Source: a virus (taxonomy: Duplodnaviria > Heunggongvirae > Uroviricota > Caudoviricetes). From it: a stretch of DNA of 64,000 nt. The stretch lies in the IMG/VR virus record IMGVR_UViG_3300029456_000117; one strand, 5' to 3'. Positions within the stretch are counted from its first letter, which is position 1. Every line of letters begins with the position of its first letter. This document shows, piece after piece, positions 6,395 to 64,000 of this stretch. A program made the translations under genes and the position numbers. The notes under the pieces were generated by a model. That model saw only the letters and a program-made list of their open reading frames with translations. It made no database searches and had not been told where the DNA came from.

Positions 6395-8641
6395 TTATTT
6401 TTCTGATACCCTACGGGCAATTACCTTTCCAGATAAGCTCTGTGAGAAATTAACAATGTGGCGGTAGATATTTACCTTTAATCCGGGGCGGTATGCGTTC
6501 TCTTGATAAACAATGTCGTTCGCATCAATCTCTGGATTTCCACGGGTATTGTATTCGTACTCAATACCGGCGTTGTAATAATCCCCAAGCCAGTCTGCCA
6601 AGTGGTTTGCTGTTTCCATATCGCTTACCAGAGGATTTTTCCATGTTATGGTCTTTCCTCTGCTATTGAGCGTTTTTACGGCATACTGCTCAACAATGTT
6701 GTATCTGTGTCCTATAATTTCAAACTGGTACTTGCCAGTAATCAGAAACTTAACTGTCACATAATAATCTCCGCTTTCTACAATGCTGACGTTTGATGCT
6801 GAGGAATTGAACGTAGCTCTGCATCCATAAGTCGGATCTCCGAGATAATACGTCTGAATATCTCCCTTTACTGCCTCAGTCTCTTCACTGATAAGAGTTT
6901 CTTCCGCAGTTCCTTTCTGGTAGGAATAGCATGGCACTCTGACAGCCTTGACAAGCTCCTGTTTGATTGATTTTGGAGAAGAGGTCATATCCTGCCTTTC
7001 CATCGTAAAATCCGTTATATCGCCAAATGAGAAGTAATCAACGACTATGCGGTTGAATGGTTCTTTTGTCTTTGTGAACTCAATCTCCATCAAATCAAAA
7101 TCATCAAAATCGTGCTGCACTATCAGCCTCTTTGTAATGTCCGAATTTACCTCATACTCATCCACCTTTTTGCCGTCATTGAAAGTCCTGAATATAATTC
7201 CGTCCGGCAGTGTAGAACCGAACATTAACTGCAAACCATAGTACATGCAGGCGGTTTCCTGAGTGATGTAGATAATCGGATTTTCTTCAAACAGGCAATC
7301 CTTATTGGACTGCTGTAATGAAATATATCCGGTGTACTTATCTGCCTTACTCTGGTTCTCCGGGAGATAATACATTTCTGCATTTACAGTGGTGTAGTTG
7401 TGTGCAAATGAAGCGTACTCCTGTTTTGCAGTCTCACTCTTTATATTCCGAACATGGGAATACTCTGTCTCTCCGTTGCACGTTATGTCGTACTCCGGTG
7501 CGAATGAGGATTTAATTTGTGGTCTGCCGTACCGGTTCTGTGAAAGAACACATCTGCAGGCATTAGCGATAATCTGTAAGGCCTCTTTGTGTTTAACTCT
7601 CGGTATGGGGTTTTTTGTGGTTGACTTTTTGAGGTACGGATCAATGTAGTATTCCTCAATTCCGGCATCCTGGAAAACCAACTCTGCTGCATGGTAATAT
7701 GTGATTCCTGCCGGAGCATAGCAGCCTTTGTAATATTCCTCGTCCATGTTTCTGAAAAGATCCTGACACCTTATCGTTGCCGAGTAATCATCGCTTTCCC
7801 ATGCACTACACTGTAACTTTGCCCCTCTTATCCATTCGATAGTGTCTGAGTTCGGCAACTGATAACCGTACCAGACATACATCTCCTGCCCTGTCTCCAA
7901 GAAGTTGATTGCTGAGTTTGGATTGTCTACATTGAAATACTGATCGTAGTTCTGTAGTTTAACCATGAAATCTATCTGTGGAACATCCTCGCAAATCGGG
8001 GATATGTAGCTGTCTAATTTAGAATCCATAATGTCCTCGTTGTAGTACACAAGGCCATAGCCTAACTGAATTGAATAAATCCTCAGTCGGGAATATGGAT
8101 TTTTCATCTTATAGAAGATGAATTTTATATATGTGGTATTCTCTAACACCTGTTCTGTACTGAACTCTGACTGATCGTTGTCAACAATCTCTATCCTCTG
8201 TCCGCTACTCGTGAGTATGTCGAACCGAGTAGGATAAACCTCTCCAAAATTGATAGTCAGTCCTTTAATGTCCGTTGCTACAACATTCAGTTCGATAAGC
8301 AGCTCATATCCGCTTGCCGGAATCAGAGGTTTGCTTACCAAACCGGTGTCGTAGTAATTCCCGGAAGTATTCTCTCTTGGTAGAAAATACATAGAGCCAT
8401 CTACCTTTGTGAAATCCTGCTCCAATGTGGCATATACGGTTGTCTCTTTTCGCTGACCGAATAAACCGGTCTGCTTTGAATAGTAGGCAAAGTTGTTACC
8501 CATGACGGTTGCATTGGCCTGTGCTTCCTGATTTACCAGACCGAATGAAATCATCATATATGATCGCTCTCTCAGAGAGCTTTTCATGCTTGCCTTGTAT
8601 TCATTTGATACTTTCTGCATACCATCACTCTCCGCAATCAA
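6395..8641 (-). CDS. phage tail protein (Tal-like tail tip or tail-associated protein)
   Basis: 748-aa ORF two genes downstream of the tape measure. Position is conserved in siphovirus tail modules. Confidence 0.55.
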   Translation of the reverse strand: MIAESDGMQKVSNEYKASMKSSLRERSYMMISFGLVNQEAQANATVMGNNFAYYSKQTGLFGQRKETTVYATLEQDFTKVDGSMYFLPRENTSGNYYDTGLVSKPLIPASGYELLIELNVVATDIKGLTINFGEVYPTRFDILTSSGQRIEIVDNDQSEFSTEQVLENTTYIKFIFYKMKNPYSRLRIYSIQLGYGLVYYNEDIMDSKLDSYISPICEDVPQIDFMVKLQNYDQYFNVDNPNSAINFLETGQEMYVWYGYQLPNSDTIEWIRGAKLQCSAWESDDYSATIRCQDLFRNMDEEYYKGCYAPAGITYYHAAELVFQDAGIEEYYIDPYLKKSTTKNPIPRVKHKEALQIIANACRCVLSQNRYGRPQIKSSFAPEYDITCNGETEYSHVRNIKSETAKQEYASFAHNYTTVNAEMYYLPENQSKADKYTGYISLQQSNKDCLFEENPIIYITQETACMYYGLQLMFGSTLPDGIIFRTFNDGKKVDEYEVNSDITKRLIVQHDFDDFDLMEIEFTKTKEPFNRIVVDYFSFGDITDFTMERQDMTSSPKSIKQELVKAVRVPCYSYQKGTAEETLISEETEAVKGDIQTYYLGDPTYGCRATFNSSASNVSIVESGDYYVTVKFLITGKYQFEIIGHRYNIVEQYAVKTLNSRGKTITWKNPLVSDMETANHLADWLGDYYNAGIEYEYNTRGNPEIDANDIVYQENAYRPGLKVNIYRHIVNFSQSLSGKVIARRVSEK

Positions 8642-30069: not shown

Positions 30070-30833
30070 CAGTCCGGCGGCAGCTTGGATGGTTGCCACT
30101 ACCGAACCGATGCAACGTGTAAGACAGTTGCCAACAAAGGTATTTCATTTTTTAATGTGGTTCTCGGACCTTGCACCCCTCCACATGGTTCTCATAATCC
30201 ACCGACTACATACTCAAAGAACCTTTGACGAGTCCAACTCTTTATCGCCTTACCTCGGATGTACGTTGTTATCGCAGTTCTCCGCCTCTACTACATTCCT
30301 CTGCGCCTGACTAAGCATGACGGCTCGATTGGTTACGGCTCACGCACATCTATAATCAGGTCTTTCTCGGAAGTTTCCACCGCCGCTTAAATCGCTGTAA
30401 CGCTCATGCACTCTAAGCAGTAAATTTTCCGCACCGGAGTTTTTCTTAAAAACTCTTGGTAATGAAAAAGCACTTGGTGATCACCGGAACCTCGCCACCG
30501 CCAATTTTCTTTCCTGTTAAAGCCGGACTAAGAAAATCAGTTAAGAAATCCGCTCGTCCTACGGTGGGGAGTTGAACCCCACTTTCCCCGGCATGGTGTC
30601 CGTGGCATTTCCAGTTATGCTATCGTAGGCACCGTTGCAACAGTGGTCTTTAGCGTGACTTACGCAAGCTCTCCAATTTTAAGTCCTGTCGGCTTTCCCA
30701 GACTACTCACATAAGCCTCTCAGTGAGCATTGCAATCTCCCTATTTAATGATTGCTTACCACGGCTTTCGCCAATACTTTTCAGCCGGAACACTAAACCA
30801 ACTATAAACAGTCAGCGTTATTCTCAGTTGAAA
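30070..30833 (-). other. about 760-nt ORF-free region inside the tRNA array, with a tRNA-like fragment at about 30566-30631 and repeated ccaccgcc elements
   Basis: There is no minus-strand ORF of 60 aa or more. The fragment has a T arm TGGGG/TTCAACT/CCCCA and acceptor-like pairing. The strand and extent of any RNA are unknown. Confidence 0.2.
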
Positions 30834-38527: not shown

Positions 38528-39145
38528 TTATCCATGACAGCCCACCGCCTTTAACATACTGATTTTCTCTACCAGAACATCAACCGTTGCGTTGAGCTTG
38601 CTGTTCTTAATGCAAACTTCCTGATAATCCTCATATAATTTTCCACCATTCAGCATTTCAGTCTGTTCCTTGACTGTGGCATTCAGCTCTGCATTGAAAC
38701 TTTCAAGCTGTTCAATCTGTTTCCTCAGATTATCATTCTCTTTTTCTACTTTCGCATTTCTTTCTTCCAGAGATTTCTTGTTTGCTTTCAGTTTTTCAAC
38801 CTCGCTCGTAAGTTCTCCGAGTTTCTTTATCATTTCCTGCTCAGACATGGTTCCCTTTTCCTCCGTCTCTTCTACTCCGAGAAGTACCTTAATCTGTTTC
38901 TTTGAAATGTGATATGTCATTGCAAGGGCGGCTATGGATTCCCCGGAAGAATACTTTTGCTCAATCTCTGTTTTCTTCACGGAAATATCCACACCATTCG
39001 TATTGAACATACGCTTGTAACCGCCCTCTTCCAGAATTTCTACTATTGTCTGCGTGTCGCACACATTCAAGTCCGCAAGAATGGGTATCTGTCTCTTATG
39101 GTTCTTCGCCAAGCGGTAATCCATTAAGATTTGTCCCTTATCCAT
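38528..39145 (-). CDS. DNA-binding/coiled-coil protein
   Basis: 205 aa with an N-terminal HTH-like segment and a long coiled coil. Confidence 0.4.
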   Translation of the reverse strand: MDKGQILMDYRLAKNHKRQIPILADLNVCDTQTIVEILEEGGYKRMFNTNGVDISVKKTEIEQKYSSGESIAALAMTYHISKKQIKVLLGVEETEEKGTMSEQEMIKKLGELTSEVEKLKANKKSLEERNAKVEKENDNLRKQIEQLESFNAELNATVKEQTEMLNGGKLYEDYQEVCIKNSKLNATVDVLVEKISMLKAVGCHG

Positions 39146-39746
39146 TCTTACCTCCCTGTTTTACCCCCCCCCCCACGGAGAAAAAGTCCTCATATATCGC
39201 TTTGATAACTTCCGCATCGTAGAGTGCATTGTGTTTTTGACCTTTCGGCAAATCAATTCCTCTGTCTGTAAGGAGCTGTTCTCTCGAAATGTCAAAAGCC
39301 GCCTTTTCTGAAATATCCAGAATCATTGAAATGTCCTGGCAGAGATCGTGGCAAAACGGATTGATGTACTCCGGCAGCAACATAGCTCCGTCTGCAATCA
39401 GTTCGCATAATAAAACCATATCGTAATGGCACACATCAGAGACAAACTGAATATCATCTCCGAAACCATCAAGCCAATTAAGCAATTCTGTTCTCACATC
39501 GTCCCTGTTGCCGATTACTCTTGTTGTAAGCTCATCCTCTTCCAGTTCCTTTTCCAGCTCCGTGTTGCCGCTCAGGAGCAGATGATCCAGCACATTCTTG
39601 GTAATCCAATCATCGCACTGCGTCTCATCGTAATCGGTCAGCTCCGCATAAAATCTTTCGCCCTCATCAGAAACCAGTCCGATACTTATGAGTGTTGTGT
39701 TCTGATGCAGACCGGTAAACTCTGTGTCAAAAAATATCTTTCTCAT
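39138..39746 (-). CDS. DnaQ-like 3'-5' exonuclease (DEDDh)
   Basis: ExoI motif FFDTEFTGL at the N-terminus and H-x4-D near the C-terminus. An 11-G tract lies 10 codons before the stop. Confidence 0.65.
   Translation of the reverse strand: MRKIFFDTEFTGLHQNTTLISIGLVSDEGERFYAELTDYDETQCDDWITKNVLDHLLLSGNTELEKELEEDELTTRVIGNRDDVRTELLNWLDGFGDDIQFVSDVCHYDMVLLCELIADGAMLLPEYINPFCHDLCQDISMILDISEKAAFDISREQLLTDRGIDLPKGQKHNALYDAEVIKAIYEDFFSVGGGVKQGGKNG
39164..39174 (-). repeat. poly-G (11) tract near the 3' end of the exonuclease gene
   Basis: Homopolymer on the coding strand (plus strand poly-C). Confidence 0.9.
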
Positions 39747-45075: not shown

Positions 45076-45766
45076 ACAGACATAAAGAACGAACCGCAAC
45101 GGACAACAACGAACCGTCGGACGTTCAGCAAAACAAACAATCAAGGCAGGCGGGGCGCACGGTGTACCCCAAAAGATCAACAGCTTTCAGACCGGACCAA
45201 GGGCAACAGCCCGGACCAAGGCAACAGAAAGCCGGCACTTATTAAGATGAGACCGAACACACGCCCACCGCCTCCGGCTTGTATCTCCTGTGAGGGCTGC
45301 CCCTGTGGTAATGAGTGCATATATCAGGCAAAAGGAAAATTGTAAACCTGTGCTAGGGTGTACCAATTCACACCGCACATATAAAAAAGATAATTAAGTT
45401 ATTGGAAGTATGAAAGCACTTTGAAACTTTCAGAACCGCACGAGATCGGGAAAGCGGTATAAAACCGGCCCGGCATCGAGTGAAAGCAGTTAGCACTCTA
45501 ACAATGATTAACGCCCCCGACGTTCCCAGGGGAAAGCGGGAACCGCTCCGGAACTATTGAGCCGGGGCGATGGCTGGAACGAGTTGCCTATATACACGCA
45601 GCATAAAAGGGAATAGGACAGGCGAACCCCTGCAAGCCGCCGTCTGCAAGTCTGACGTAAACGACTTTGAAACAAAATAAAAAAGGGCGATCCGCTACAC
45701 CTACCAAGCGACACGGACCGCCGCCACCCCTCCGGGCTTGTCTCCTATTATAACAGGCTTTCCCGG

Positions 45767-46198
45767 ATGGAACAACAGAAAAGAGAGGGAAAGACCATGA
45801 CAGCAGAAAAAATTATTGATTCTTTGAGATTCACAGCAACAGAGGCAGACGAACAAAAGGACCTTTTTACACCGTCCCACGTTCTCTATAAATGCCGCAT
45901 TGTCAACCCGGCAAATAATCGCCGCTACACTTTTGATTATCAATGCAACCCAAGCGCAACGCATGAGCCAACAAAAGAAGATTGTTTATATTGTCTCTTG
46001 TCTGATGCTTCTTGTGCTGATAGCTGCACAGATGAGGCGGACTTTTTAACAGAGTTTGGATATATTGACGGCGGAGCGGATCAGGTTCGCAAAGGCTTAA
46101 AGGCCTATAAGGCTTGCAAGCGTACCGCGGCAGCTATTGACCGTATTTTTACAGAGGACGAAAAAACCGCCCTTAATGAATATTACGAAAATTACTAA
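45767..46198 (+). CDS. hypothetical protein
   Basis: 143-aa ORF with an upstream RBS. Confidence 0.4.
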   Translation: MEQQKREGKTMTAEKIIDSLRFTATEADEQKDLFTPSHVLYKCRIVNPANNRRYTFDYQCNPSATHEPTKEDCLYCLLSDASCADSCTDEADFLTEFGYIDGGADQVRKGLKAYKACKRTAAAIDRIFTEDEKTALNEYYENY

Positions 46199-46263
46199 TT
46201 GACAGAAACGAGGCGCGCGCCCTCCGGGGCGCTCCCTCTCAAAATATAGGAGGCTTATATATT

Positions 46264-46536
46264 ATGATGACATTATCAGAGGCGAAAGCCATTTATAGAA
46301 CCGGAAAAGGCCACTTTTTCGACCGTGAAACGTTCAAATATTGGGGATCTCGTATAGAATCCGCTTTGTATAAAAACCGCTGTTTTGTTACCAGTGAAAA
46401 CAATTTTGACGGCAGCCGCAGAGCTTACACCGTGCGCCGTTTCTCTCCTGACTTTCTCCACGTTGAGACGGTCGGAGAGTTCCAGGAACACGCTACAAAA
46501 TGGGGCGCAAGAGAAGCAGCAAAGGAGGTTGTATAG
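46264..46536 (+). CDS. hypothetical protein
   Basis: 90-aa ORF. Confidence 0.4.
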   Translation: MMTLSEAKAIYRTGKGHFFDRETFKYWGSRIESALYKNRCFVTSENNFDGSRRAYTVRRFSPDFLHVETVGEFQEHATKWGAREAAKEVV

Positions 46537-46540
46537 AGTT

Positions 46541-46939
46541 ATGAAAGAATTTATGTATGTTTTCCAGATTTCAAAATTGATCACTTTTGAAGTAAATTTT
46601 TACACCCTCGGCACCAACTCCGCGCCGTACTTCTCAACCTCTGCGAATGAGTTCTGCAGAAGTAAACTAGACTACACCAGAGGCGGACAGGCTCAGCGGG
46701 ATCTGTTGCCGAAGTTCTCCCCGGCTCGCCGTTTCTTTGAAAAGTGGGATCATTGCCATTTACACGACTTGACCCCGGCAGAATATGAGGAAATAGCCGC
46801 AGATATTGAGGAATTGAAAACACGATACAATTATATTGAGGACATCCGCGACACTTTCCGCGGTTCCCGCTCCTCTATTCCATTTTATGATATTGTGAAA
46901 CTCTCCAAGATGGAGCCCAAAAAGAAAGGGGGCGCATAG
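46541..46939 (+). CDS. hypothetical protein
   Basis: ATG at 46541 is preceded by aaaggagg. 132 aa (MKEFMYVFQ...). Confidence 0.4.
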   Translation: MKEFMYVFQISKLITFEVNFYTLGTNSAPYFSTSANEFCRSKLDYTRGGQAQRDLLPKFSPARRFFEKWDHCHLHDLTPAEYEEIAADIEELKTRYNYIEDIRDTFRGSRSSIPFYDIVKLSKMEPKKKGGA

Positions 46940-46940
46940 T

Positions 46941-47321
46941 ATGAAAATCGACATTGAAAGACTTATTGACGCAGTAGCCGCAGAAAATGAGGCCTACAAC
47001 GAATATTGTTATAGCTCTAAAACCTTATACCGTGGTCCCTTTGAGGAAATCACAACCCGAAAAAATCATGTTAATTATGCGCGAGAGGTTCACGACAGGG
47101 AACAAAACGCCGTTGATACATTGGCGGAGGTTTTCCAAATGGACACAGAGACACGCAACCGGCTTTATATTGCAACTAGAGCCGTGAACCGATGGCGGAA
47201 CGCTACACAGTGGGCGCGGCTTATCCCGGACACCATGCAAGACCAGATCCGCCGGTTTATCTTCGGAGAACCCGAAGCACCTAATAGCACTTGTAAATAT
47301 TGCGGAGTATGGCAGGCATAG
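46941..47321 (+). CDS. hypothetical protein
   Basis: 126-aa ORF. Confidence 0.4.
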   Translation: MKIDIERLIDAVAAENEAYNEYCYSSKTLYRGPFEEITTRKNHVNYAREVHDREQNAVDTLAEVFQMDTETRNRLYIATRAVNRWRNATQWARLIPDTMQDQIRRFIFGEPEAPNSTCKYCGVWQA

Positions 47322-47385
47322 ACGGACGGCGGCGGATCATCCGCCCCGGCTCTGCCGGATATATTAAAAGATCGGAGGCTTTAGG

Positions 47386-47682
47386 ATGGCTTATAAATGC
47401 CTGAACCGTTCCGCAGTATTGGAACATCTGCAAGAGGGGCAAACCGTAAATATTGATGAGTATATAGAGAAAATGCAGTTTTTCAAGAAATACGGAAACA
47501 ACCAGGGAATCTATATAACAGACAGCCGCTATATTGAGTATAGAGAAATCGGCTTGCACTATTTCAAGTATGATACATTGATAAAATTCTTTGAGGATTT
47601 CAAACAGAGGAACCACGCAAAACGTATATTGATAACATTCAGTAAAAACCACCGCTTACAATGTGAGCCGGTGCAGGATTAA
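47386..47682 (+). CDS. hypothetical protein
   Basis: 98-aa ORF. Confidence 0.4.
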   Translation: MAYKCLNRSAVLEHLQEGQTVNIDEYIEKMQFFKKYGNNQGIYITDSRYIEYREIGLHYFKYDTLIKFFEDFKQRNHAKRILITFSKNHRLQCEPVQD

Positions 47683-47697
47683 GGAGGCCTTTATATT

Positions 47698-48273
47698 ATG
47701 GGATGGGATTATACACACGCTACACACTACACCAGAACCGGAGCTATTGACCGGAAAGCAGAAATTGACGAGCTTTACACATGGCAGAACGACACCAGAA
47801 AAGCCGAGGTTGTGCGCTCCGCAATGGTAGGCGGTACATATTACGCCGCTGTTAAAGTAACCATATTGAGCACCGGAGGGGCTGAGACATTCGCCGCCGT
47901 TGTATTGACGCACACCAACAGCCGGGATTATTTCAACTTTGGAGTTAAGACGATGGGAGAAAGTTCTGGACCATGTGAAGATCATTGCCCGGCTTCTATT
48001 CTCTCTCTTCTCTCCCCTACTGATTCAGAATATGCCAATAACTGGCGCGAGAGATGCAGAAAGAACATTGAAGTAAAGAAAGATCCGCACGCATTGAAAA
48101 ATTTACCTGTCGGCGCAGTGATCCGCTTTACTCTCCACACTGGGGAAAGCATCGAACTATTGAAACACGCCGCGTCGTATCAGTTCAAACGCCCTTTCTG
48201 GTTCTGCCAATCATCCGGCCGTTATATGCCAGCAACCAGGATCCCGGCAAATTATGAAGTAGTCACAGCATAA
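47698..48273 (+). CDS. hypothetical protein
   Basis: 191-aa ORF. Confidence 0.4.
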   Translation: MGWDYTHATHYTRTGAIDRKAEIDELYTWQNDTRKAEVVRSAMVGGTYYAAVKVTILSTGGAETFAAVVLTHTNSRDYFNFGVKTMGESSGPCEDHCPASILSLLSPTDSEYANNWRERCRKNIEVKKDPHALKNLPVGAVIRFTLHTGESIELLKHAASYQFKRPFWFCQSSGRYMPATRIPANYEVVTA

Positions 48274-48301
48274 CATATTGAGTTTAGGAGGATAAGAAAC
48301 C

Positions 48302-48667
48302 ATGAATAATACAGCATTGAGAATTGAGAACGGTATGAGCAGTTTTGAGTTACTGCAGGCCAAGGTGTCAAGCCTTGAAGCAACAGAAAAGCGCATGAGC
48401 ATTGAAGAGGATCGCCGCATGGCTGCCATTGATGCAATGGATCGCACCTATAACAACCCATCCACACCGCGCCGCACACGCTTTGAGCTTTCTATTGAGC
48501 TTCCTATTCAGCGTGAGGCGTTGAAAAATTACCACAATGAGCGCAGTCGGGTATCTGCCGAGCTTCGAGGATTGAGAACGGCTATTGACCTGATTCTAAC
48601 CGTTTCCAACTACGGCGGAGAGGTTACACCCGGAAACCGCCGATTGATTGAGAGTATTTTGATCTAA
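48302..48667 (+). CDS. hypothetical protein
   Basis: 121-aa ORF. Confidence 0.4.
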   Translation: MNNTALRIENGMSSFELLQAKVSSLEATEKRMSIEEDRRMAAIDAMDRTYNNPSTPRRTRFELSIELPIQREALKNYHNERSRVSAELRGLRTAIDLILTVSNYGGEVTPGNRRLIESILI

Positions 48668-48719
48668 TCCGTTACATTGTAACGATATGTAACACGTTGT
48701 AATATGGAGGTAACACAAA

Positions 48720-48959
48720 ATGTTAGAAATGTCATTCTATAAAGGTACCTTGGACAGAGCCAAGGCAAGGGAAGTTGTTGAGGCATCCGAAAAGCCTTTG
48801 ATGTTCCGATATGGCTTCGCTTTTAGAGGCGCAGAGAAAAGACCTATAACCAAAGAAAAAGCATTGAGTATTATTGATGATTCCGGCAACTATCTGGATA
48901 TAACAGAAACCGACAATGAGATCCTTTTGAATACTTTTTCAAGTAATGATATGTGGTAG
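48720..48959 (+). CDS. hypothetical protein
   Basis: 79-aa ORF. Confidence 0.35.
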   Translation: MLEMSFYKGTLDRAKAREVVEASEKPLMFRYGFAFRGAEKRPITKEKALSIIDDSGNYLDITETDNEILLNTFSSNDMW

Positions 48960-49156
48960 GAGGTATGAACGTGGTAGTTATTTCATTGACAGATAGAGAA
49001 CAGACATTATTGAGTGACAGTGTATTGACGATGATAGAGAACGCAGGGCAGGCGCAACGCCTTGTATGTGACACTGAATCGCAGAAAGCTATTGACATAC
49101 ACATCAAAGAATTACAGGCATTAAACAGAAAGTTGTGTACTACCGGCATCCGGTAA
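48953..49156 (+). CDS. hypothetical protein
   Basis: 67-aa ORF. Confidence 0.3.
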   Translation: MVGGMNVVVISLTDREQTLLSDSVLTMIENAGQAQRLVCDTESQKAIDIHIKELQALNRKLCTTGIR

Positions 49157-50421
49157 AGAAAGGATTGAGAACCATGAGAAAGAAAAGCGTATTTATTAAC
49201 TGTATGGAGACATTGACCGCAAATAGAAAACACAGCGAGGCCCGCACACTTCTCAATGCAGGACTGAAAGAGTCCGCAGAGAGACAGACCGCTGCCACCG
49301 CTCCGGCGTATGAACTTACAAAGCCGTATATCTTCCCTGCCGTTGATGGCAATATGACTTATCACACCTCATGGGGATCTCATGGAGTAAAGAACGAAGC
49401 CGAAACCATATTGAGTGTATTGAACTCTTTCCGCCTCCGCTCCACCCTTGCAAAAATCAATCAAGGACCACGCCTTACACAGTATGTTATTGAACCGGCT
49501 CCCGGAACTCAGGTGCAAGCCATTTTGAGACATGAAAAGGAATTTCAGGCAGCTTTACATTGCAACGCCTCTTTGAGATTTGATAATGGCTATGTGTATA
49601 TTGAGGTTCCGACCGGTACAGAAACCGTGTTCCTGGGCGATATGCTCATTGATAATGAGTATCAGTCCTCCAGTGGTTTCACAATGGCGATCGGCATGGC
49701 GGTTGACGGTTCCAAGCATTACATTGATATTGCCAAGGCTTGCCATATCCTCATTTCTGGTATGACAGGATCTGGTAAATCAATCGTTCTGCATAACCTC
49801 ATCTTGTCTCTATTGATGAAAAAGAATCCGGCACAGATGCACTTATATATCATTGACCCAAAAGCAACAGAGTTTGAGTATTACAAGAACCTTGCAGCGT
49901 GTACGGTTGTATCTGAGGTAAATGGTGCGGTTGAACTATTGAAGAACCTTTGTATTGAGATGGATCGCCGCTACTCCATTCTTGCCTCTACCGGCTGCCG
50001 TGACATTGACAGCTATAATACAAAGTTCGCAGATGCTCCTATGAGGCGTGACATAGTTTTCATTGATGAGTTATCCGACCTTATGAGCATGGGTGGAAAA
50101 TCCGTTGAGGGACATATTGTAAGAATTGCACAGAAAGCCCGTGCCTGTGGCATCCACCTTGTAATCGCTACACAGTACCCGGTTGCAAAGGTTGTTACTG
50201 GATTGATTAAGGCAAATATGCCTACAAAGATCTGTCTCCGTGTTGGTACAGTCACAAACTCTATGGTCGCATTGGATATGGCCGGCGGCGAAAAGCTCAT
50301 GGGTCATGGCGATATGCTTTTTCTCCCTAACGGTTCTCTTTCCCCGGTAAGGTTGCAAGGTGGGTTTGTATCTGAGACGGCAATCAACAATGTCGTTGCC
50401 GGTTTGATGAAAAATCAGTAA
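49135..50421 (+). CDS. FtsK/SpoIIIE-family DNA translocase ATPase
   Basis: 428 aa. Walker A is SGMTGSGKS. The Walker B region is IVFIDELSDLM. An FtsK-like TQYP...R motif is present. Confidence 0.75.
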   Translation: MYYRHPVKKGLRTMRKKSVFINCMETLTANRKHSEARTLLNAGLKESAERQTAATAPAYELTKPYIFPAVDGNMTYHTSWGSHGVKNEAETILSVLNSFRLRSTLAKINQGPRLTQYVIEPAPGTQVQAILRHEKEFQAALHCNASLRFDNGYVYIEVPTGTETVFLGDMLIDNEYQSSSGFTMAIGMAVDGSKHYIDIAKACHILISGMTGSGKSIVLHNLILSLLMKKNPAQMHLYIIDPKATEFEYYKNLAACTVVSEVNGAVELLKNLCIEMDRRYSILASTGCRDIDSYNTKFADAPMRRDIVFIDELSDLMSMGGKSVEGHIVRIAQKARACGIHLVIATQYPVAKVVTGLIKANMPTKICLRVGTVTNSMVALDMAGGEKLMGHGDMLFLPNGSLSPVRLQGGFVSETAINNVVAGLMKNQ

Positions 50422-50429
50422 GTAGGAGG

Positions 50430-51026
50430 ATGGTTAGAATGGCAGGAAAGACAACAACGGCTTGTACGCATGAACAGTACGAGACTATCATAAAAACTTT
50501 ATATGAGGGCATTGGAGACTGCATACAGCCTAATCCCCGGATTGCTACGATCCTCGTTATTGAGGCGAATGTAGGATTGCGTATTGGAGACACACTCTCC
50601 CTCCGGCGTTCCTCTTTCATCAAGACACCATCCGGCCACGCTTTCAATATCGTTGAGCATAAGACCGGAAAGGTTCGCCGTTTCAAGGTCCAGGAACAGG
50701 TCTACAACTTCCTCCTTGAATATGCGGACTCTGAGGGCATTGAGGGCGATGATCTGATATTCCCTATCGGTGTCCGGGCAGTGCAAAAGCATCTGAAAAA
50801 GGTTTGCGACTGGCTCGGTCCTGAATATGAGGATATATCCACCCATTCGTTCCGTAAATACTTCGGAACAGAGATTTACTACAAGAATGGAAAGGACATT
50901 GAACTGGTCCGCCGCCTGTATCAGCACAGTTCCGCCGCCGTTACGGCTCGTTACTTGGGTGTTACGGACGAAAAGATTGAACAGGCATTAGATTCCCACG
51001 TTGATATTATTTACCGCCCCAAATGA
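50430..51026 (+). CDS. small tyrosine recombinase/integrase (catalytic domain only)
   Basis: 198 aa. The catalytic residues are R (LRIGD), HxxR (HSFRKYF), H (YQHSS) and Y (ARYLGV). Confidence 0.6.
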   Translation: MVRMAGKTTTACTHEQYETIIKTLYEGIGDCIQPNPRIATILVIEANVGLRIGDTLSLRRSSFIKTPSGHAFNIVEHKTGKVRRFKVQEQVYNFLLEYADSEGIEGDDLIFPIGVRAVQKHLKKVCDWLGPEYEDISTHSFRKYFGTEIYYKNGKDIELVRRLYQHSSAAVTARYLGVTDEKIEQALDSHVDIIYRPK

Positions 51027-51301
51027 GGCGCATATATAGTAATGGTTCCTTATAAGATTTGTCTATTTGAGTGTCGTGTAACAGGTTTCTGGCAGTTTTT
51101 AATGTGAAAACTGCTGCCGGTATGAGGGTTGATAACGGCATACACCATCCCTTTGTTGGTTGACAGGTTTTCCGGCTTTAATGCGAAACCGGATAAGGAT
51201 AGTGGGATCTCCTGACATTCGCGTATCTCCGGCGGAGCGCACGATGCCGCTTGATAAGAACGTGTCCAAATAGACAAATGCTATAAGGAGCCATTGAAGA
51301 A

Positions 51302-51994
51302 ATGGAGGTCTTAGGCATGATTGATATTACAAACTGCAATAAAATCATCATTGATACAAACGAAAAGGTTGAAAAGATCATTGATTGGTACGAACAAAAT
51401 AAAGATTGGTTGGATGCCGAAGAGTTCCGCATCCCTATCCCCTCCGCTCTCGTTGAGCTGCCGGAGGAAGATATAAAATTCTATTATGAATCTGAGGGTG
51501 TGTTTGCGCGGTTGCACCTGTATATGGCCGGTGTGTATGTCTGTAATTACAGATATGATCCGAAGTCTCAGAAGATAGGCGAACTCATTTTCCCGGTTAC
51601 TTTAAGTAAGGAAAAACGCAAGGCAGCTCAGATGATATTGGCTGCCGACAGAACGCCGTACAAAGAGGCATTGAAGTTCCACTCTCTCATGTGCTTTGCC
51701 ACTCATTACCGCAACTGCATTGAGACAGCGGATCAGAAAGAGAAACATATCTCCAGTAGCCATAAGAAACGCATACAGCGTTCCGGCGGTACAACTCCGC
51801 TCATCACAACGTATCGCATTGATAACCGTCCCATTCCGGCACATCCGGGAGCAAAACGGCAATATACAAAGCCTACGGAACAGGTAAGTGTGAGAGGCTT
51901 CTACCGAACCACTAAAACAGGCAAACGTGTATGGGTTCGCCCATTCACAAAATACAACGGAAACTCTGAAAATCATAAAACATACAAAGTATAG
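51302..51994 (+). CDS. hypothetical protein
   Basis: 230-aa ORF. Confidence 0.4.
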   Translation: MEVLGMIDITNCNKIIIDTNEKVEKIIDWYEQNKDWLDAEEFRIPIPSALVELPEEDIKFYYESEGVFARLHLYMAGVYVCNYRYDPKSQKIGELIFPVTLSKEKRKAAQMILAADRTPYKEALKFHSLMCFATHYRNCIETADQKEKHISSSHKKRIQRSGGTTPLITTYRIDNRPIPAHPGAKRQYTKPTEQVSVRGFYRTTKTGKRVWVRPFTKYNGNSENHKTYKV

Positions 51995-52003
51995 GAGGAC
52001 ACT

Positions 52004-53209
52004 ATGAGCAATTTGAAAGTATACGCAAAAACCATTGAAGATGAAGCACTTGAACAGATCAACACTCTTCTGTCTCAGGATGCCTTTAAGGACTGCAAGG
52101 TTCGCATTATGCCGGATGTTCATGCCGGTAAAGGCTGTGTAATCGGATTTACGGCAGACCTGGGAGAAAAGGTTATCCCGAACATTGTCGGAGTAGATAT
52201 TGGCTGTGGTATGCTCTGCGTGAGCATCGGACACGGAGATATTGATTTTGAAAAATTGGATAATGTCATTCGTACCTATGTCCCTAGTGGAAGAAATGTG
52301 CATGACGGTAGAGTTATGCGTTTTGGCGAATTACAAGACCTCTACTGTTACCGCGAATTGAGAGACACCAAGCGTATTGAGCGTTCTATCGGAACTCTCG
52401 GCGGCGGGAACCATTTCATTGAGGTTGATGTTGCTGAGGATGGATATAAGTATCTGGTTATTCATACCGGTAGCCGTAACCTCGGAAAACAGGTGGCGGA
52501 TTATTACCAGAATCTTGCCTACGAATTGATGTGTGGCAAGGACGATTTGTATGAGCGTCAGGATAAGCTCATTGAGGAATACAAGGCTGCCGGAAGAAAG
52601 TCTGAGATTGAGGCTGCCTTAAAAGAATTGCGTGAGAATTTCCGTGCCACCACTCCGAAGCTGCCAAAGGATCTGTGCTACTTGGATGGAAAGTACCGGG
52701 AGCAGTATTTACATGATATGCGTATCTGCCAGAAGTTTGCATATTTCAACCGTGTGATGATCGCGCAAATCATCTGCAATCACATGGGATGGGGAGTTGA
52801 TGCTGATATGCCGGATTACTTTGAGTGCATCCACAACTATATAGACCACGATTCTAATATTGTCCGCAAGGGTGCTATCTCTGCAAAACTCGGAGAAAAG
52901 GTACTTATCCCTATCAATATGCGTGACGGCTGTATTCTCGGAACCGGAAAGGGCAATGATGATTGGAACTGTTCTGCGCCGCATGGAGCTGGCCGGCTTA
53001 TGTCCCGGAGCAAAGCAAAGGAAACTCTCTCTTTGAGCGATTATTCTGCTTCTATGTCCGGCATCTACACCACTTCCGTATCTGAGGAAACCATAGATGA
53101 AGCTCCGATGGCATACAAACCGATTGAGGAAATCATGGACTGTATCAAAGATACCGTTGATATTCTCGCAGTATTGAAGCCGGTCTATAATTTCAAGGCG
53201 AGCGAATAA
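52004..53209 (+). CDS. rtcB: RtcB-family RNA 3'-phosphate/2',3'-cyclic-phosphate ligase
   Basis: 401 aa. It has the RtcB signatures MPDVHAGKGCVIGF, GGGNHFIEV, HTGSRNLG and the C-terminal HNY...GAGR metal/GTP-binding residues. Confidence 0.85.
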   Translation: MSNLKVYAKTIEDEALEQINTLLSQDAFKDCKVRIMPDVHAGKGCVIGFTADLGEKVIPNIVGVDIGCGMLCVSIGHGDIDFEKLDNVIRTYVPSGRNVHDGRVMRFGELQDLYCYRELRDTKRIERSIGTLGGGNHFIEVDVAEDGYKYLVIHTGSRNLGKQVADYYQNLAYELMCGKDDLYERQDKLIEEYKAAGRKSEIEAALKELRENFRATTPKLPKDLCYLDGKYREQYLHDMRICQKFAYFNRVMIAQIICNHMGWGVDADMPDYFECIHNYIDHDSNIVRKGAISAKLGEKVLIPINMRDGCILGTGKGNDDWNCSAPHGAGRLMSRSKAKETLSLSDYSASMSGIYTTSVSEETIDEAPMAYKPIEEIMDCIKDTVDILAVLKPVYNFKASE

Positions 53210-53271
53210 AGTAGCGTTATTTTATACATTGATGTATAATGTACTAAACATTGAACATGGAGGATATGCCT

Positions 53272-53946
53272 ATGAAAATGAGATATTTAGCTGTGTTGCT
53301 GTTATCTGCCGTCCTATTGGTCGGATGCGGAAACAGCACCGCAACAAAGAGTGGAAATACCGCAGTTGATACCACCGCCGAAACCGAACAAAAAGAGAAC
53401 CTTGCTGATATGATGGAAACCAAGGAATACTCATGTACGGTTGATGATTCATTCATGTATTACGTTATGTATGTTACGAACAATTCCGATAAGGTTGTCA
53501 GCATTGATTTGAACGTGACCGCACTCGATTCTTCCGGCGGTATGGTTGGTTCTTCCAGTGACGGCACAAAGGCTGTTGCTCCCGGTCAGACTGCCGGGAT
53601 ATGGACCACATTCGATGAATGGGATAAAATAAGCAGCTTCGATTATACGATGTCCGTAAATGAGGAAAAGGACTTCTCTCCGGTATATGATGATCTTTCG
53701 ATTGATTACAACACGACCGATGCAGGCATTGTTGCATCTGTCACGAACAACGGGGACTCTCCTGCGGATTTCGTGTGGATGGATGTAGTGTATCTAAAAG
53801 ATGGGGAGATGGTAAATTTCAGTGAATTGTCTTTCATGGACGATAACCAGGAATTGCAGCCGGGAACAACGCTCTCTGATGAGGGGACTTGCTACTCCGA
53901 TTCTGGTTTTGATGATGTAGTGATTGCCATAAATGGCAGAAAATGA
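53272..53946 (+). CDS. lipoprotein
   Basis: Signal peptide with lipobox (MKMRYLAVLLLSAVLLVGCG). A bidirectional terminator hairpin follows. Confidence 0.55.
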   Translation: MKMRYLAVLLLSAVLLVGCGNSTATKSGNTAVDTTAETEQKENLADMMETKEYSCTVDDSFMYYVMYVTNNSDKVVSIDLNVTALDSSGGMVGSSSDGTKAVAPGQTAGIWTTFDEWDKISSFDYTMSVNEEKDFSPVYDDLSIDYNTTDAGIVASVTNNGDSPADFVWMDVVYLKDGEMVNFSELSFMDDNQELQPGTTLSDEGTCYSDSGFDDVVIAINGRK

Positions 53947-53961
53947 TTTAAGGCAGAGGTT

Positions 53962-54621
53962 TTATTCCTCTGCCTTTTCTATGAGCTCCCATGCCTTTTC
54001 ATCGCCAAATTCTTTCCTTACGGCTTTCCATAATCTGAGGTACTTCTTGGATTCTCTGTCTCTTTCAGTCCTTGCCTTATCAATCTGACTTCTGAGACGG
54101 CTTATATACTGCTCATCCTCCGTCTGTATCAGCTTATCAGAATCCCGATACAACGAACGAATCATGCTCTCTTTGAGCATATCTACCCACAGAGTAGATA
54201 CCTCTGTACTGCGTCCATTGACTGAACGGCGCATTTTATACTCTCTGCCGGATAAATCCTGTTTCTTTGCTTTCTTAGCGCAGTAATCTCCGATATAGAC
54301 ACCAATCCAGTCCGGTATCTCTTCCTTGACCTGATTGTATAATTCCCTTGTGAGAACATAATAGTTGTAATGGCCTACAAAGGATTTTGCAGCAGCACTA
54401 TGGAAGTCCGCTTTCGACACCTTAATTTCATAGCACCGGAACACTCCCTTGGTGTCATAGGTCATGTAATCAACTCTTTCTCTTCCGCAAAATCCGATTG
54501 TTACCTCATAGCAGCCAAATACACCGGTCTTTCTTGTGGCCAGTCTGATTGCTTTTTCCAGTGCTACAGTTTCAGCGGTTTTCATTTCAGATCCTCGATT
54601 GAGAATACAAGACCTACACAA
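53962..54621 (-). CDS. PD-(D/E)XK-like nuclease fold protein (tentative)
   Basis: 219 aa. VDYMTYDTKGVFRCYEIKVSKADF fits D...E-x-K. Confidence 0.3.
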   Translation of the reverse strand: MCRSCILNRGSEMKTAETVALEKAIRLATRKTGVFGCYEVTIGFCGRERVDYMTYDTKGVFRCYEIKVSKADFHSAAAKSFVGHYNYYVLTRELYNQVKEEIPDWIGVYIGDYCAKKAKKQDLSGREYKMRRSVNGRSTEVSTLWVDMLKESMIRSLYRDSDKLIQTEDEQYISRLRSQIDKARTERDRESKKYLRLWKAVRKEFGDEKAWELIEKAEE

Positions 54622-58358: not shown

Positions 58359-58670
58359 CTAAATAACCTCCCATCTTCGTAAAAATCTTTTTCTTGCAAC
58401 AACAGTTTCGCAATTATCGGTCGCTCTTAATACCCCCTCTTCATATCCTTGAAATGTCTCTGGATTGAATGTAATTGTTGCGCCTGGGATGAGCATTTTG
58501 CTTAATCTTTCAGCTTTCGGTATCTTTTCTCCCAAAATAGTTCCGCAATTACATATCTCCACAATTCCGTTGGGGTACATTTTTTGACAAGTTTTGCATC
58601 TGCAAACCTTTTTTACCCTCATGTTTCTCCTCCTTTTATCTGTTATCGTTCCTTTCCATTCCCAAATCAA
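58359..58670 (-). CDS. hypothetical Cys-rich protein
   Basis: 103-aa ORF. Confidence 0.35.
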   Translation of the reverse strand: MIWEWKGTITDKRRRNMRVKKVCRCKTCQKMYPNGIVEICNCGTILGEKIPKAERLSKMLIPGATITFNPETFQGYEEGVLRATDNCETVVARKRFLRRWEVI

Positions 58671-59341
58671 ATAGTGATAATTGTGCTCTTTCTCTTTCTA
58701 ACCTTGTATTTGAGGCCTCATACATCTCGGTATCTATCTCAAACCCTACAAACTTCACACCGTTTCTATGGTATGCTATGAGGCTTGACGCGGATCCTAC
58801 GTGGGTGTCAAGCACCACCCCCCCCCCCCGATAGCTTAAAAACACCTACGAGGTATTCGTACAATGCTATCGGTTTCTGGGTTGGATGGATGCGCTTCTC
58901 TGAATTTGTTCCGCCAGTGTTTGAGTATCTGAACAGTTTTGCCGGGAGATTGTAAGAAGTCCACGCAATCTCCGCTTGTGAAAAGGCATCCCACGGCTGC
59001 ACCTTATCCCATACAACAAAACACTTTGTTGGTGGCAGATTGAAATAATTTCCGCCCCATATAATCTGATTTTTCGATACGCGGAACAATTCTTTGAAGT
59101 ATTCCTCCGTTGGCGGTTTGCTATCCCATTCCTTTACCTGTCCACTCCGTTTCAATCTGCTTGCAGTGCTTTCGGCTGGATAACCGTTCTTCGTCCGGCT
59201 CTTATTGGTTCCCATCGCCATGTTCGGCGCATTGATTCCGTATGGTGGGTCTACGATTGCCACATCAAAGTATTTATCAGGGAAAAGTTTCATGCCGGCC
59301 ATACAGTCCATGTTGTAGTAACCAAAATCTAATTTATCCAC
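58636..59341 (-). pseudogene. N6-adenine DNA methyltransferase (DPPY motif) split by a 12-G homopolymer tract. As sequenced it is out of frame (OFF state)
   Basis: The N-terminal ORF 58808-59341 (IVDPPYGINAP) ends GGGGGA-stop inside the tract at 58818-58829. The C-terminal ORF 58636-58845 (VVLDTHVGSASS..., AdoMet motif) continues in another frame. One extra G (or two fewer) fuses them. Confidence 0.6.
58818..58829 (-). repeat. poly-G (12) tract inside methyltransferase 1
   Basis: Homopolymer at the frameshift point. Confidence 0.9.
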
Positions 59342-59998
59342 TTAATAATGCTCACTCCCTTATAACCTTTTTGAAACTCATACCACGCATACGCAACTGC
59401 ACTTCCGCCTCCGGCTTTCATTTCCTCAAACATTCCATTTTTGGCGCACAGAATACGGCTGCGTGACACATATACATATCTCGGAGGGTATTTCTTAAAC
59501 AGCTCGCCTCTTGCCTTTCCCTCCAAGAACTGTAATTTAAGGAACATGAACACCTTTCTCCCGTCCGGTATGATCGTCATTGCGTGTTCAATGAACTCTT
59601 TTGCGTACTTGTACGGAGGATTGGTAAGAATATCGCCATCCCACATTTCTGTTGTCTGCAAGAAGTCTATTCCTCCCTCTCCATACCCTCTGTCGATAAG
59701 GTCCGTACTGCGTACCTCGTACCCAAGTTCTATGAGACGTTCTGATAAGTGTCCTTGTCCTGCAGAGCACTCCCAAATCTTATGATTCAGCTCTGCCCCC
59801 CCCCTGTAACAATGCGTCTACTGCGATAGGGTCTGTCGCATAGTAGTCGTTAATCTCTCTTTCTTTCTCTGTGTGGTTGGATGCACCAAGAGTTGTAAAA
59901 ATGCTCTTGCCATTTCCGGTCCAATCTTTTCCCATTTCTGATCTCCTTATAAATATCCAAATCTGTAACCATATATGGATTCTAGTTCTCCGCGGCAT
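59329..59998 (-). pseudogene. second DNA methyltransferase (NPPY motif) split at a 9-G homopolymer tract
   Basis: The N-terminal ORF 59780-59998 ends at the G-tract 59796-59804. The C-terminal ORF 59329-59661 carries TNPPY. The frames differ across the tract. Confidence 0.5.
59796..59804 (-). repeat. poly-G (9) tract inside methyltransferase 2
   Basis: Homopolymer at the frameshift point. Followed by TGT on the plus strand. Confidence 0.9.
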
Positions 59999-62069: not shown

Positions 62070-62606
62070 CTATCTCCGTGCCATTGCTTCCTCGTATAAT
62101 CGTTTGTATACGTCCCTCTCAGCAGTTATCTTTGCAATTTCCAACTGTGTCTCAATGTCCGGCATCTCCACCTTTTCTGCAATAGGTTCAGGTTCTTTCT
62201 CGTCTGGCTTCACTGCTTCATTTGCAGCTTCCGCCCACTTCTTTACCAGATCATTCGATTTGATGTTAATTCCAATACCGATACTTACCGCCAATGCCGC
62301 ATCAATCTTTTTCATTTCCGCCATAGAACACTGCCCTATGTAGTCTCCAACCTTATCCTTATTTACCGTGTCAATCTGCTCACAAAGCACAGTGGACGGA
62401 TATTTTGAACTGTTAATTTTAACGTGTGTCGGCAACGGTTTCTTTTCCTGGGTGGTAAGGTAAACCACTTCCAATATAGGACCTGCGTTGTTGCCAATAT
62501 CATTGCTTATGATTACCGCAGGTCTACCCCCCCCCTGTACATTTCCGCTATATTCACTCTCGTTGCGGATATAGAAGATTTCCCCTCTATAAAATTCTTT
62601 GTTCAT
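62070..62606 (-). CDS. PemK/MazF-like toxin-fold protein with an acidic C-terminal extension
   Basis: GGGRPAVIISNDIGNNAGPILEVVYLTT matches the MazF/PemK core (RPxlvvs...vvPlT). It contains an in-frame 9-G tract (GGG). Confidence 0.5.
   Translation of the reverse strand: MNKEFYRGEIFYIRNESEYSGNVQGGGRPAVIISNDIGNNAGPILEVVYLTTQEKKPLPTHVKINSSKYPSTVLCEQIDTVNKDKVGDYIGQCSMAEMKKIDAALAVSIGIGINIKSNDLVKKWAEAANEAVKPDEKEPEPIAEKVEMPDIETQLEIAKITAERDVYKRLYEEAMARR
62527..62535 (-). repeat. poly-G (9) tract inside the PemK-like gene (in frame)
   Basis: Homopolymer followed by TGT on the plus strand. Confidence 0.9.
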
Positions 62607-63234: not shown

Positions 63235-63909
63235 CTAATATCTGATATTTAGATTTCCATGTTCATTGATCCAATCAATAATTTCCTTGAATCCAAGACC
63301 TCCCTCATCCCACGGTTTCATAATGTACTCATACTGTTTGGGATGAGTGAGTTTCATCTTTTCAAATCTTCCTGGGGACTTTTCAAGGTGGCATCCATAG
63401 CCGCAGAACATACAACCAGTACGTTCACATCCGGTCGTTTTGAGAACCGGCCTGCCGAGGTCGAAGATTTCCATATTGCTTACATCAGCTAATGTCATTT
63501 GACCGTGTGCCTCATCCTCTGTCACAACTTTTCCGTATACGGAACAGATTTCAAACCTCTTTGGCTGTTTTTTAATGTATTTTCTGGCTTTTCTTCTTTT
63601 GGTCTTATCTGCCCTGCATCGGACTTCCATGTTGCAAGCTGCTAAGTTCTGGTCGTATTCGTCCTGCAACTGCCGTATGTAGAGAAGTATGTCCTGCTCC
63701 GTCCAAAATGCCATTGGTTGGCTTTGCGGATATTTTAATTCAAACGCATTGCACCCTGTTTTCAGCCACCCTATCGTCCTCTTTTGACTTTCCGATGCAA
63801 GCATCGCAAGTATTGGTCTTTTACCGGTTTCTTTGTAATATTTCTTTGCCGGTCTTTTCTTCATTACAGCGCAGCACGTATCATTCACTTCAAATGGAGC
63901 TTCAAGCAT
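63235..63909 (-). CDS. PAPS-reductase-family (PP-loop) protein, C-terminal part. The gene continues upstream across a 7-G tract and beyond the window
   Basis: The upstream frame (..LIVKNGGS..) is offset by one nt relative to this ORF. An 8-G version of the tract at 63950-63956 would fuse them (..TGGGSKKSRFNCEKWRFMLEAPFEVNDTCC..). Confidence 0.45.
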   Translation of the reverse strand: MLEAPFEVNDTCCAVMKKRPAKKYYKETGKRPILAMLASESQKRTIGWLKTGCNAFELKYPQSQPMAFWTEQDILLYIRQLQDEYDQNLAACNMEVRCRADKTKRRKARKYIKKQPKRFEICSVYGKVVTEDEAHGQMTLADVSNMEIFDLGRPVLKTTGCERTGCMFCGYGCHLEKSPGRFEKMKLTHPKQYEYIMKPWDEGGLGFKEIIDWINEHGNLNIRY

Positions 63910-63949
63910 GAACCGCCATTTTTCACAATTAAATCTTGATTTCTTGCTG

Positions 63950-63956
63950 CCCCCCC
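63950..63956 (-). repeat. poly-G (7) tract inside the PAPS-reductase-like gene
   Basis: Homopolymer followed by TGT on the plus strand. Frames differ on either side. Confidence 0.85.
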
Positions 63957-64000
63957 TGTCGTTACTGCGCCTTGAAGCCGTTTTAATCTTGTTTTAGAAC

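Follow-up and report, generated by a model that had tools for sequence, protein, structure and literature searches.

Poly-G tracts as probable contingency loci in the DNA-modification genes of a temperate human gut phage

Hypermutable poly-G tracts are known from Campylobacter phages where, in the account given in PMC12823448, they are linked to phenotypic diversity, to evasion of bacterial resistance, and possibly to host range (Sorensen et al. 2021, Cell Rep 35:109214, cited in PMC12823448). Here, we describe an unusually dense set of poly-G tracts in the modification genes of a gut phage, found in a 64,000-nucleotide stretch of caudoviricete DNA, record IMGVR_UViG_3300029456_000117, which we analyzed at its full length and refer to as the window. 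The Campylobacter phages in question are lytic, with tracts reportedly placed in genes for receptor binding or for the tail, and their host is said to use poly-G as well. Common to those phages and this one is the presence of long poly-G runs within phage open reading frames (ORFs); there, as far as the summarized account goes, variation in length gives phenotypically mixed progeny. Unlike those of the Campylobacter phages, the tracts described here (at least ten) fall in DNA-modification and toxin-like genes, are gathered in one island of a temperate Lachnospiraceae phage, and vary visibly at the consensus level across human gut metagenomes.

Another precedent is the agt gene of phage T2, a contingency locus in a DNA-modification gene that sets up a trade-off between two restriction systems of Type IV (Gomez, Barrick and Waters, bioRxiv 10.1101/2025.10.21.683753). 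Both cases involve a homopolymer in a phage DNA-modification gene, reversible frameshifts (in our case, we infer the reversibility), and a proposed advantage in bet-hedging, between defences against which the phage must lack the modification and others against which it must have it. The T2/T4 loci are A-runs of 6–9 nt with mutant frequencies of ~1e-3 to 1e-4 in lytic coliphages (bioRxiv 10.1101/2025.10.21.683753), whereas the tracts studied here are G-runs of 7–13 nt, which differ between nearly all assemblies, occur many times per genome, and are concentrated in methylases. In bacteria, phase-variable methylases of the Type III mod or Type I hsd kind carry simple-sequence repeats and underlie phasevarions (reviewed in PMC12707154). 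The likeness is again clear, in that a simple-sequence repeat lies inside a methylase ORF, and in phasevarions this repeat toggles methylation by slipped-strand mispairing. The phage element differs from phasevarions in that no cognate restriction gene was recognized beside its two amino methyltransferases (MTase 1 and MTase 2). It is possible that the phage methylases also have a regulatory role in the lysogen.

The island extends into a C5 cytosine methylase, for which the nearest known systems are the multispecific enzymes of Bacillus phages SPR, phi3T and rho11s, as they are cited in PMC12707154 (Trautner et al. 1996 EMBO J 15:1434). Like those enzymes, the phage gene has tandem target-recognition (TRD) modules, about ten of them, and single-chain PF00145 proteins such as P0090 carry homologues of these modules in tandem. 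Unlike those enzymes, its array is broken into at least eight small ORFs, and poly-G at the module cores would set which pieces join. Split C5 methylases, such as M.AquI and M.EcoHK31I, are also known. In our literature searches, no dense island of poly-G switches in methylases turned up for any phage of a gut commensal. Phage poly-G hypermutation, contingency loci in a phage DNA-modification gene, and phase-variable bacterial methylases are already known; what is new is the density of poly-G tracts in the modification genes of a gut phage.

Poly-G tracts in the window and in related loci

A scan of all homopolymers across the whole window finds exactly five C-runs of at least 6 nt on the + strand, each of which is poly-G on the coding (-) strand. 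On the + strand, C-runs of exactly 6 and G-runs of at least 6 are both absent, and A/T runs reach 7 nt at most; the distribution of homopolymer lengths in the window is bimodal. The heptamer GGGGGGG occurs 18 times, versus 4.6 expected, and none of 100 dinucleotide-preserving shuffles reaches 18. The tracts are real and not a matter of chance. An earlier note on this DNA, made from the letters alone, had placed five tracts at the positions listed in Table 1, all of them poly-G on the coding strand, and had judged their number far above chance; on each of these points we agree. Its remark that three are followed by TGT is correct as a count, and we found no meaning for the TGT. The tracts, of 7–12 G, lie inside five window ORFs, which encode two DNA methyltransferases, a PemK/MazF-like protein, a protein resembling 3′-phosphoadenosine-5′-phosphosulfate (PAPS) reductase, and an exonuclease. 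Of the glycine codons in the window's genes, GGG is used least (8.8%), and two or more in a row are found solely at the tracts.

Related loci, about 90 in all, were drawn from gut metagenomes through ENA, Logan and IMG/VR, together with one isolate of Diplocloster hominis. With the four tracts of the window's right-hand part begins, on its proximal side, an island of ~8.4 kb (L001 1166–9538) that holds ~10–15 tracts and runs ~4.5 kb past the window end. A comparison of tract lengths in related genomes had been proposed in the earlier note, and its outcome favors that note: in ~90 independent loci, tract positions are conserved to the codon and lengths range from 5 to 13. The strand bias is complete in the island-side loci, the first 83 of which have 524 G-runs of at least 7 nt and no C-runs; there are 66 G-runs and one C7 in the exonuclease-side loci (n=79). 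The window and L001 have no substitutions over 16 kb; their sole difference is the MTase 1 tract, 12 versus 10 G. L004, L009 and L010 have 7–11 substitutions in 20 kb, yet 5–7 of their tracts differ. Length barcodes are distinct in all 31 of the 31 loci having the nine main tracts, and the fraction of differing tracts is ~0.5–0.6 at every distance in single-nucleotide polymorphisms (SNPs), zero included. A/T runs of 5–7 nt in the same loci, which served as a control, differ in 4/2012 comparisons, versus 303/413 for G-runs of at least 7. The spread of lengths is alike in ENA, Logan and IMG/VR assemblies and in the isolate genome. Tract lengths, in short, change at rates far above that of substitution. 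More distant relatives are mostly without tracts of 7 or more; the exceptions are L085, with five runs, and L074 and L089, with single runs.

Frame arithmetic, in which the length of each tract was varied in silico and the continuity of the ORF read, gives the ON and OFF states in Table 1. Both methylase genes are split exactly at their tracts, as the earlier note had observed, and the half-ORFs, when fused in silico, match one family end to end. For MTase 1, the fused protein scores 48.8 bits against PF01555 (cutoff 26.7) and matches phrog_23224/67 over residues 8–220; among PDB sequences, it matches the beta-class methylases 9c3u, CcrM, DpnA and RsrI. With DPPY at residues 31–34 and VLDTHVGS after the tract, MTase 1 has the features of the beta class, and the Gly-Gly encoded by tract T11 aligns with the conserved pGG that stands just before VLDPFxGSG in the PDB beta-class methylases. 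The gain of a single G had been expected to restore this gene. That expectation fails: from 12 G, the frame opens at 11 or 14 (-1 or +2), and also at 8, and not at 13, and the peptide KLSGGGG-VVLD given in the earlier note is the +2 product. T11 has lengths of 5, 7, 8, 9, 10 and 12 in the relatives. A second MTase 1 allele, 80–85% identical and present in 12 loci, reads AAC GGA CCG at this point and is tract-free.

The fused MTase 2 protein of 201 aa matches phrog_799 (E 1.6e-60, residues 3–201); it has no Pfam match and no meaningful match among PDB sequences. The gene is called intact, at 201 aa, in L002, L003 and L005–L008, and from the 9 G of the window it is restored at 8 or 11 (-1 or +2). 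The lengths of its tract, T10, are 6–10 in the relatives, and 25 of 56 loci are in frame, with 8 G (p 0.09 against 1/3). In a second MTase 2 allele, of 87% amino-acid identity, the codon that bears T10 bears a tract too, between flanks that differ. The L002 lineage (L002 8030; also L003, L015, L023, L032, L041 and others) has an extra adenine methylase of the NPPY/EFYTP type with a tract of its own, T10x. Coordinated switching of MTase 1 and MTase 2, at which the first ten loci hinted, was considered and rejected, as there is no association in at least 50 loci.

Two kinds of irregularity were also seen in the contigs. The IMG/VR contigs L027, L030, L050, L052 and L055 start at tracts or a few bases from them, four exactly at one, and the Logan contig L171 ends 8 nt past a poly-G tract; such breaks suggest either mixed tract lengths in the reads or loss of coverage. 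In L010, rare indels outside the tracts separate near-identical contigs (~7126–7170 and ~8500; alignment columns 8475 and 10430). For example, a change from G4 to G5 splits a radical-SAM gene into ORFs of 43 and 147 aa, and a 4-nt AGAA repeat is separately altered. These may be real mutations or assembly errors.

Table 1. Positions of the tract-bearing genes and poly-G tracts in the window
Feature	Position	Strand	Description
MTase 1	58636..59341	-	Beta-class N6/N4 amino DNA methyltransferase, DPPY motif; OFF in window, as 177-aa + 69-aa ORFs
Tract T11, 12 G	58818..58829	-	In MTase 1; encodes Gly-Gly directly before motif I (VLDxxxGS)
MTase 2	59329..59935	-	NPPY-motif DNA methyltransferase (phrog_799); OFF in window
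Tract T10, 9 G	59796..59804	-	In MTase 2, just upstream of the S-adenosylmethionine-binding motif ECSAGQG
PemK/MazF-like gene	62070..62606	-	PF02452, E 4e-23; MazF-like phrog_1936; ON in window
Tract T09, 9 G	62527..62535	-	Encodes conserved GGG of the MazF loop
PAPS-reductase-like gene	63235..64000	-	Runs past window end; OFF in window
Tract T08, 7 G	63950..63956	-	In PAPS-reductase-like gene; ON at 8 G
Poly-G tract, 11 G	39164..39174	-	Near 3′ end of DEDD-type exonuclease/RNase H-like gene, phrog_2259; sole tract outside the island

Slippage, selection and rival explanations

We consider it likely that these G-runs are hypermutable slipped-strand contingency loci, through which functional phage genes are reversibly turned ON and OFF. 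The proposal that phage DNA-modification genes contain such loci, made in the earlier note, gains support from the conserved positions and variable lengths of the tracts, the stability of the control runs, and the intactness of the ORFs. The tracts have the hallmarks of contingency loci, namely an unstable G homopolymer within an ORF, the length of which is polymorphic among otherwise nearly identical genomes and changes by steps other than multiples of 3. Slipped-strand mispairing at replication, either of the prophage or during lytic growth, would add or remove G residues, and each gain or loss would shift the frame, toggling the gene reversibly between full-length and truncated forms. MTase 1 and MTase 2, each 1 nt too long in the window and therefore OFF, would be two of ~10–15 independent switches, and phage populations would each come to differ in which modification genes are active. 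By analogy with T2 agt, the benefit may be one of bet-hedging, between hosts in which restriction is blocked by methylation and hosts with systems that target methylated DNA. Replication slippage, switching within populations, changed methylation, and the bet-hedging benefit are all steps that we infer.

The reading frames behind the tracts are well preserved. When the tract is set in frame, the ORFs of MTase 1, MTase 2, the PemK-like gene, the PAPS-reductase-like gene and C5B (a part of the C5 methylase, described below) are at or near full length in every tract-bearing locus, and in the case of MTase 1, 233 aa are intact in 55/55 loci. Pooled ratios of nonsynonymous to synonymous polymorphism (pN/pS) are 0.083 for MTase 1, 0.044 for MTase 2, 0.082 for PemK, 0.063 for the PAPS-reductase-like gene, and 0.114 for C5B, so that the five tract genes span 0.04–0.11, those that are mostly OFF included. 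Interruptions are rare, in that ~453 of the 460 tracts consist of G alone, despite a synonymous diversity (pS) of 0.1–0.3. The homopolymers are maintained against codon usage, and the proteins do not require them. Tracts have been gained independently in DNA-modification genes, which argues that switchability itself is selected. The frame matters, too. Against an expectation of 1/3, in-frame lengths are enriched in MTase 1 (38/55, p 7e-8), PemK (40/65, p 4e-6) and tract T01 (36/42, p 3e-12), and the frame therefore has fitness consequences. Moreover, 8 G is the ON length for both MTase 1 and T07, yet 37/55 loci have 8 G at the former versus 11/51 at the latter (p 2e-6); mutation alone therefore does not set the lengths, whose distribution depends on the gene.

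Several observations nonetheless weigh against reversible switching as a full account of the tracts. The heterogeneity within populations and the reversibility that we propose both rest on comparison between assemblies. Most of these assemblies are probably short-read, and long G-runs are prone to error in library PCR and sequencing. Whether MTase 1 is ON shows no correlation with whether MTase 2 is, and there is thus no sign of coordinated selection. Not every tract is a simple switch, either: the exonuclease tract does lie near the C-terminus, where the earlier note had put it, and is not an ON/OFF site, since the tract is nine codons before the stop and all frames end within ten codons, such that its 11 G cannot toggle the ORF. 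Finally, at T02–T07, PAPS and T10x, about one-third of consensus sequences are in frame, as neutral drift would give. From this fraction it follows that most populations have most of these genes OFF. This last point would be expected if the tracts were neutral hot spots in dispensable genes, by-products whose OFF states mark the onset of gene decay, and the cultured lysogen L084, in which 8/9 tract genes are OFF, would fit the same view. Decaying genes, however, should not look as these do. No secondary frameshifts or stop codons were found in 55–68 loci per gene, pN/pS is low even where the gene is mostly OFF, the tracts remain uninterrupted in the face of synonymous change, alleles of one gene have gained tracts independently and at codons that differ between them, and MTase 1, PemK and T01 show a strong excess of ON lengths. 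We therefore regard neutral decay as quite improbable. It is less probable still, to the point of being hard to credit, that the length differences are homopolymer artefacts of sequencing or assembly and that the true tracts are fixed in frame within ordinary intact methylases. Such errors would account for the fact that both window methylases are off by exactly one base, for the clustering of MTase 1 and PemK lengths at the in-frame value ±1, and for the breaking of contigs at tracts. They would not account for lengths from 5 to 13 with out-of-frame modes (T07 is most often 9, and PAPS 9), for the equal spread across ENA, Logan, IMG/VR and the isolate genome, for the stability of A/T runs of up to 7 nt, or for the recurrence of the 12-G MTase 1 allele in two further samples. 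Nor could an artefact create the tracts or explain the choice of the rarest glycine codon.

Slippage might also occur during expression. In this scenario, RNA polymerase slips on the G-run, or tRNA-Gly slips by +1 on the ribosome, out-of-frame alleles yield a certain amount of full-length protein, and tract length acts as a rheostat that tunes dosage, perhaps atop variation in the DNA. GGG-G is a classic context for tRNA-Gly slippage, and sufD-type decoding of GGGG is established. Both window methylases need a +1 shift on GGG-G, and a rheostat would reconcile strong purifying selection with the uniform distribution of frames seen at many tracts. On the other hand, the in-frame enrichment in MTase 1, PemK and T01 is difficult to explain in this way, and no stimulatory signal was identified. 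We think a rheostat unlikely, and favor reversible ON/OFF switching through changes in the DNA.

The split C5 methylase and other tract-bearing genes

The tract-bearing genes of the island comprise two or three amino methylases, the split C5 methylase, the PAPS-reductase-like gene, and the MazF-like gene. The C5 methylase occupies the distal part of the island. One ORF, C5A, covers PF00145 positions 1–220, and another, C5B, covers 230–322. Between them lie ~10 TRD modules, encoded by small ORFs in different frames (L001 1650–3430). The array is fragmented into at least eight such ORFs, each with its own Shine-Dalgarno sequence and ATG start codon and each under purifying selection in its own frame (pN/pS 0.00–0.17). 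Its copy number varies, with size classes of 2460, 2650 and 2836 nt. A single long ORF through the array was ruled out, as there are stops in all three frames between T02 and T03.

An exhaustive profile search with a single module matched 2470 proteins, many of them long PF00145 methylases with 2–6 tandem copies; when homologues of one module were sought by word index, the matches were confined to small ORFs from this group of phages. Of ten module-bearing proteins tested, nine have a PF00145 match, eight with the N-terminal or core part and P0207 with the C-terminal part only. P0090, a protein of 576 aa, contains counterparts of several of the phage TRD modules in one chain. The phage C5 methylase thus has the tandem modules of the multi-TRD class and lacks that class's single polypeptide with motifs I–X.

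Tracts T02–T07 encode GGG at the cores of the TRD modules. Their lengths are uniform over the three frames, and each frame joins different pieces, which suggests that these tracts may switch specificity rather than turn a gene ON or OFF. At T03, for example, the three states would be m1+m3 and m2; m1 and m2N+m3; and m1+m2C. Slippage in the C5 array would then change the set of cytosine-methylation specificities and not merely turn the enzyme off. Taken further, the island may be a combinatorial generator of epigenetic barcodes, in which tracts serve as three-state connectors (length mod 3) that fuse different TRD modules. We put this forward tentatively and hold it to be possible but doubtful. 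We know of no precedent for TRD-only polypeptides acting in trans.

C5A has a further peculiarity. Directly before its catalytic Cys codon is an 8-nt insert, TAAGACCT, invariant in 44 loci (L001 1229–1236, ~5.2 kb past the window end). The context, CCA-UAA-GA-CCU-UGC, provides a take-off codon, a stop, and a synonymous landing codon, the features of sequence seen in bypassing of the T4 gene 60 type, and a hop over the insert restores TYSFP-CQDLS exactly. The flanks of the insert are under purifying selection in different frames, with a pN/pS of 0.02 on both sides. Between the insert and the next ATG there are three polymorphisms, and all three are synonymous in the CQDLSLAGK frame. The hop-corrected C5A protein aligns contiguously with PF00145. 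On these grounds, the insert is a candidate for programmed translational bypass, and the catalytic half of the enzyme would need an 8-nt hop to obtain its active-site Cys.

The remaining tracts of the window lie in other kinds of genes. With its 9 G, T09 keeps the frame of the PemK-like gene open, as the earlier note had stated; the lengths of this tract in relatives are 7–10 (13 in L067). A distant PemK homologue, in L075, encodes the same Gly-Gly-Gly as GGA GGA GGC. The PAPS-reductase-like gene, when fused, encodes a 378-aa protein that matches phrog_424 (E 3e-44). Here the expectation that one added G would fuse the frames is borne out, as 8 G gives an intact 378-aa gene, such as that of L005. 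T08 has lengths of 7–9 and is in frame in 2/11 loci. The other allele of this gene, found in the L002 lineage, has two tracts, T08a and T08b, 68 nt apart and at other positions. The exonuclease tract is conserved as well, with lengths of 7–11 in ~56 IMG/VR loci, among them alleles whose proteins share only 72% identity. From its downstream end it is 18 nt to the ATG of the next gene, and the tract stands beside that gene's GGGAGG ribosome-binding site (39164–39174 and 39138–39145); its length alters just the C-terminal tail and the position of the stop relative to the downstream start. From this arrangement, the tract might tune translational coupling.

The phage, its host, and implications

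We read the element as a common temperate, siphovirus-like phage of ~85 kb whose host is the gut Lachnospiraceae bacterium Diplocloster hominis. An exact-protein look-up with a neighboring 186-aa protein found 168 blocks of public assemblies, mostly from human gut, in contigs of up to 300 kb, and the isolate Diplocloster hominis CSJ-3 encodes a 100% identical copy of a marker protein on a contig of 355 kb. A protein-seeded search of IMG/VR yielded 73 related loci, in contigs of up to ~85 kb. An exact flank pattern search of IMG/VR gave zero matches, because the relatives there carry SNPs in the tract flanks. At the DNA level, INPHARED contains no close cultured relatives, and its matches are limited to fragments of methylases from Flavobacterium and Bacteroides phages.

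The window encodes a tape-measure protein, a portal, a major head protein, and a large terminase. A block on the opposite (+) strand (45700–54000) contains an FtsK/SpoIIIE-like gene, an integrase gene, and a gene for the RNA ligase RtcB. Thirteen tRNA calls fall on the minus strand, between 21645 and 32876; the tRNAs and RtcB together hint at a counter-measure against host anticodon nucleases. One ARAGORN call, at 30556–30629 (-), is a tRNA-like gene whose anticodon loop has 8 nt (ACCA) and which is conserved in 9/12 relatives. It was considered as a frameshift-suppressor tRNA and dismissed, since reading UGGU restores neither methylase frame and Rfam, at E up to 1, recognizes no tRNA in this interval; it is probably a degenerate tRNA. 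The genes adjoining the two methyltransferases are an HNH endonuclease-like ORF, a radical-SAM gene, and a nucleotidyltransferase-like gene, and neither res nor hsdR was recognized among these neighbors.

One consequence of this work is practical. Where a phage contig has a frameshifted methylase, the gene should be neither "corrected" nor dropped as a pseudogene. If our interpretation of the tracts is right, this temperate phage, which is widespread and infects a commensal of the human gut, would diversify its own DNA modification by means of many independent hypermutable switches. The island would then be a phage-side counterpart of bacterial phasevarions, and the range of phage contingency loci would extend from Campylobacter and T-even phages to the gut virome.

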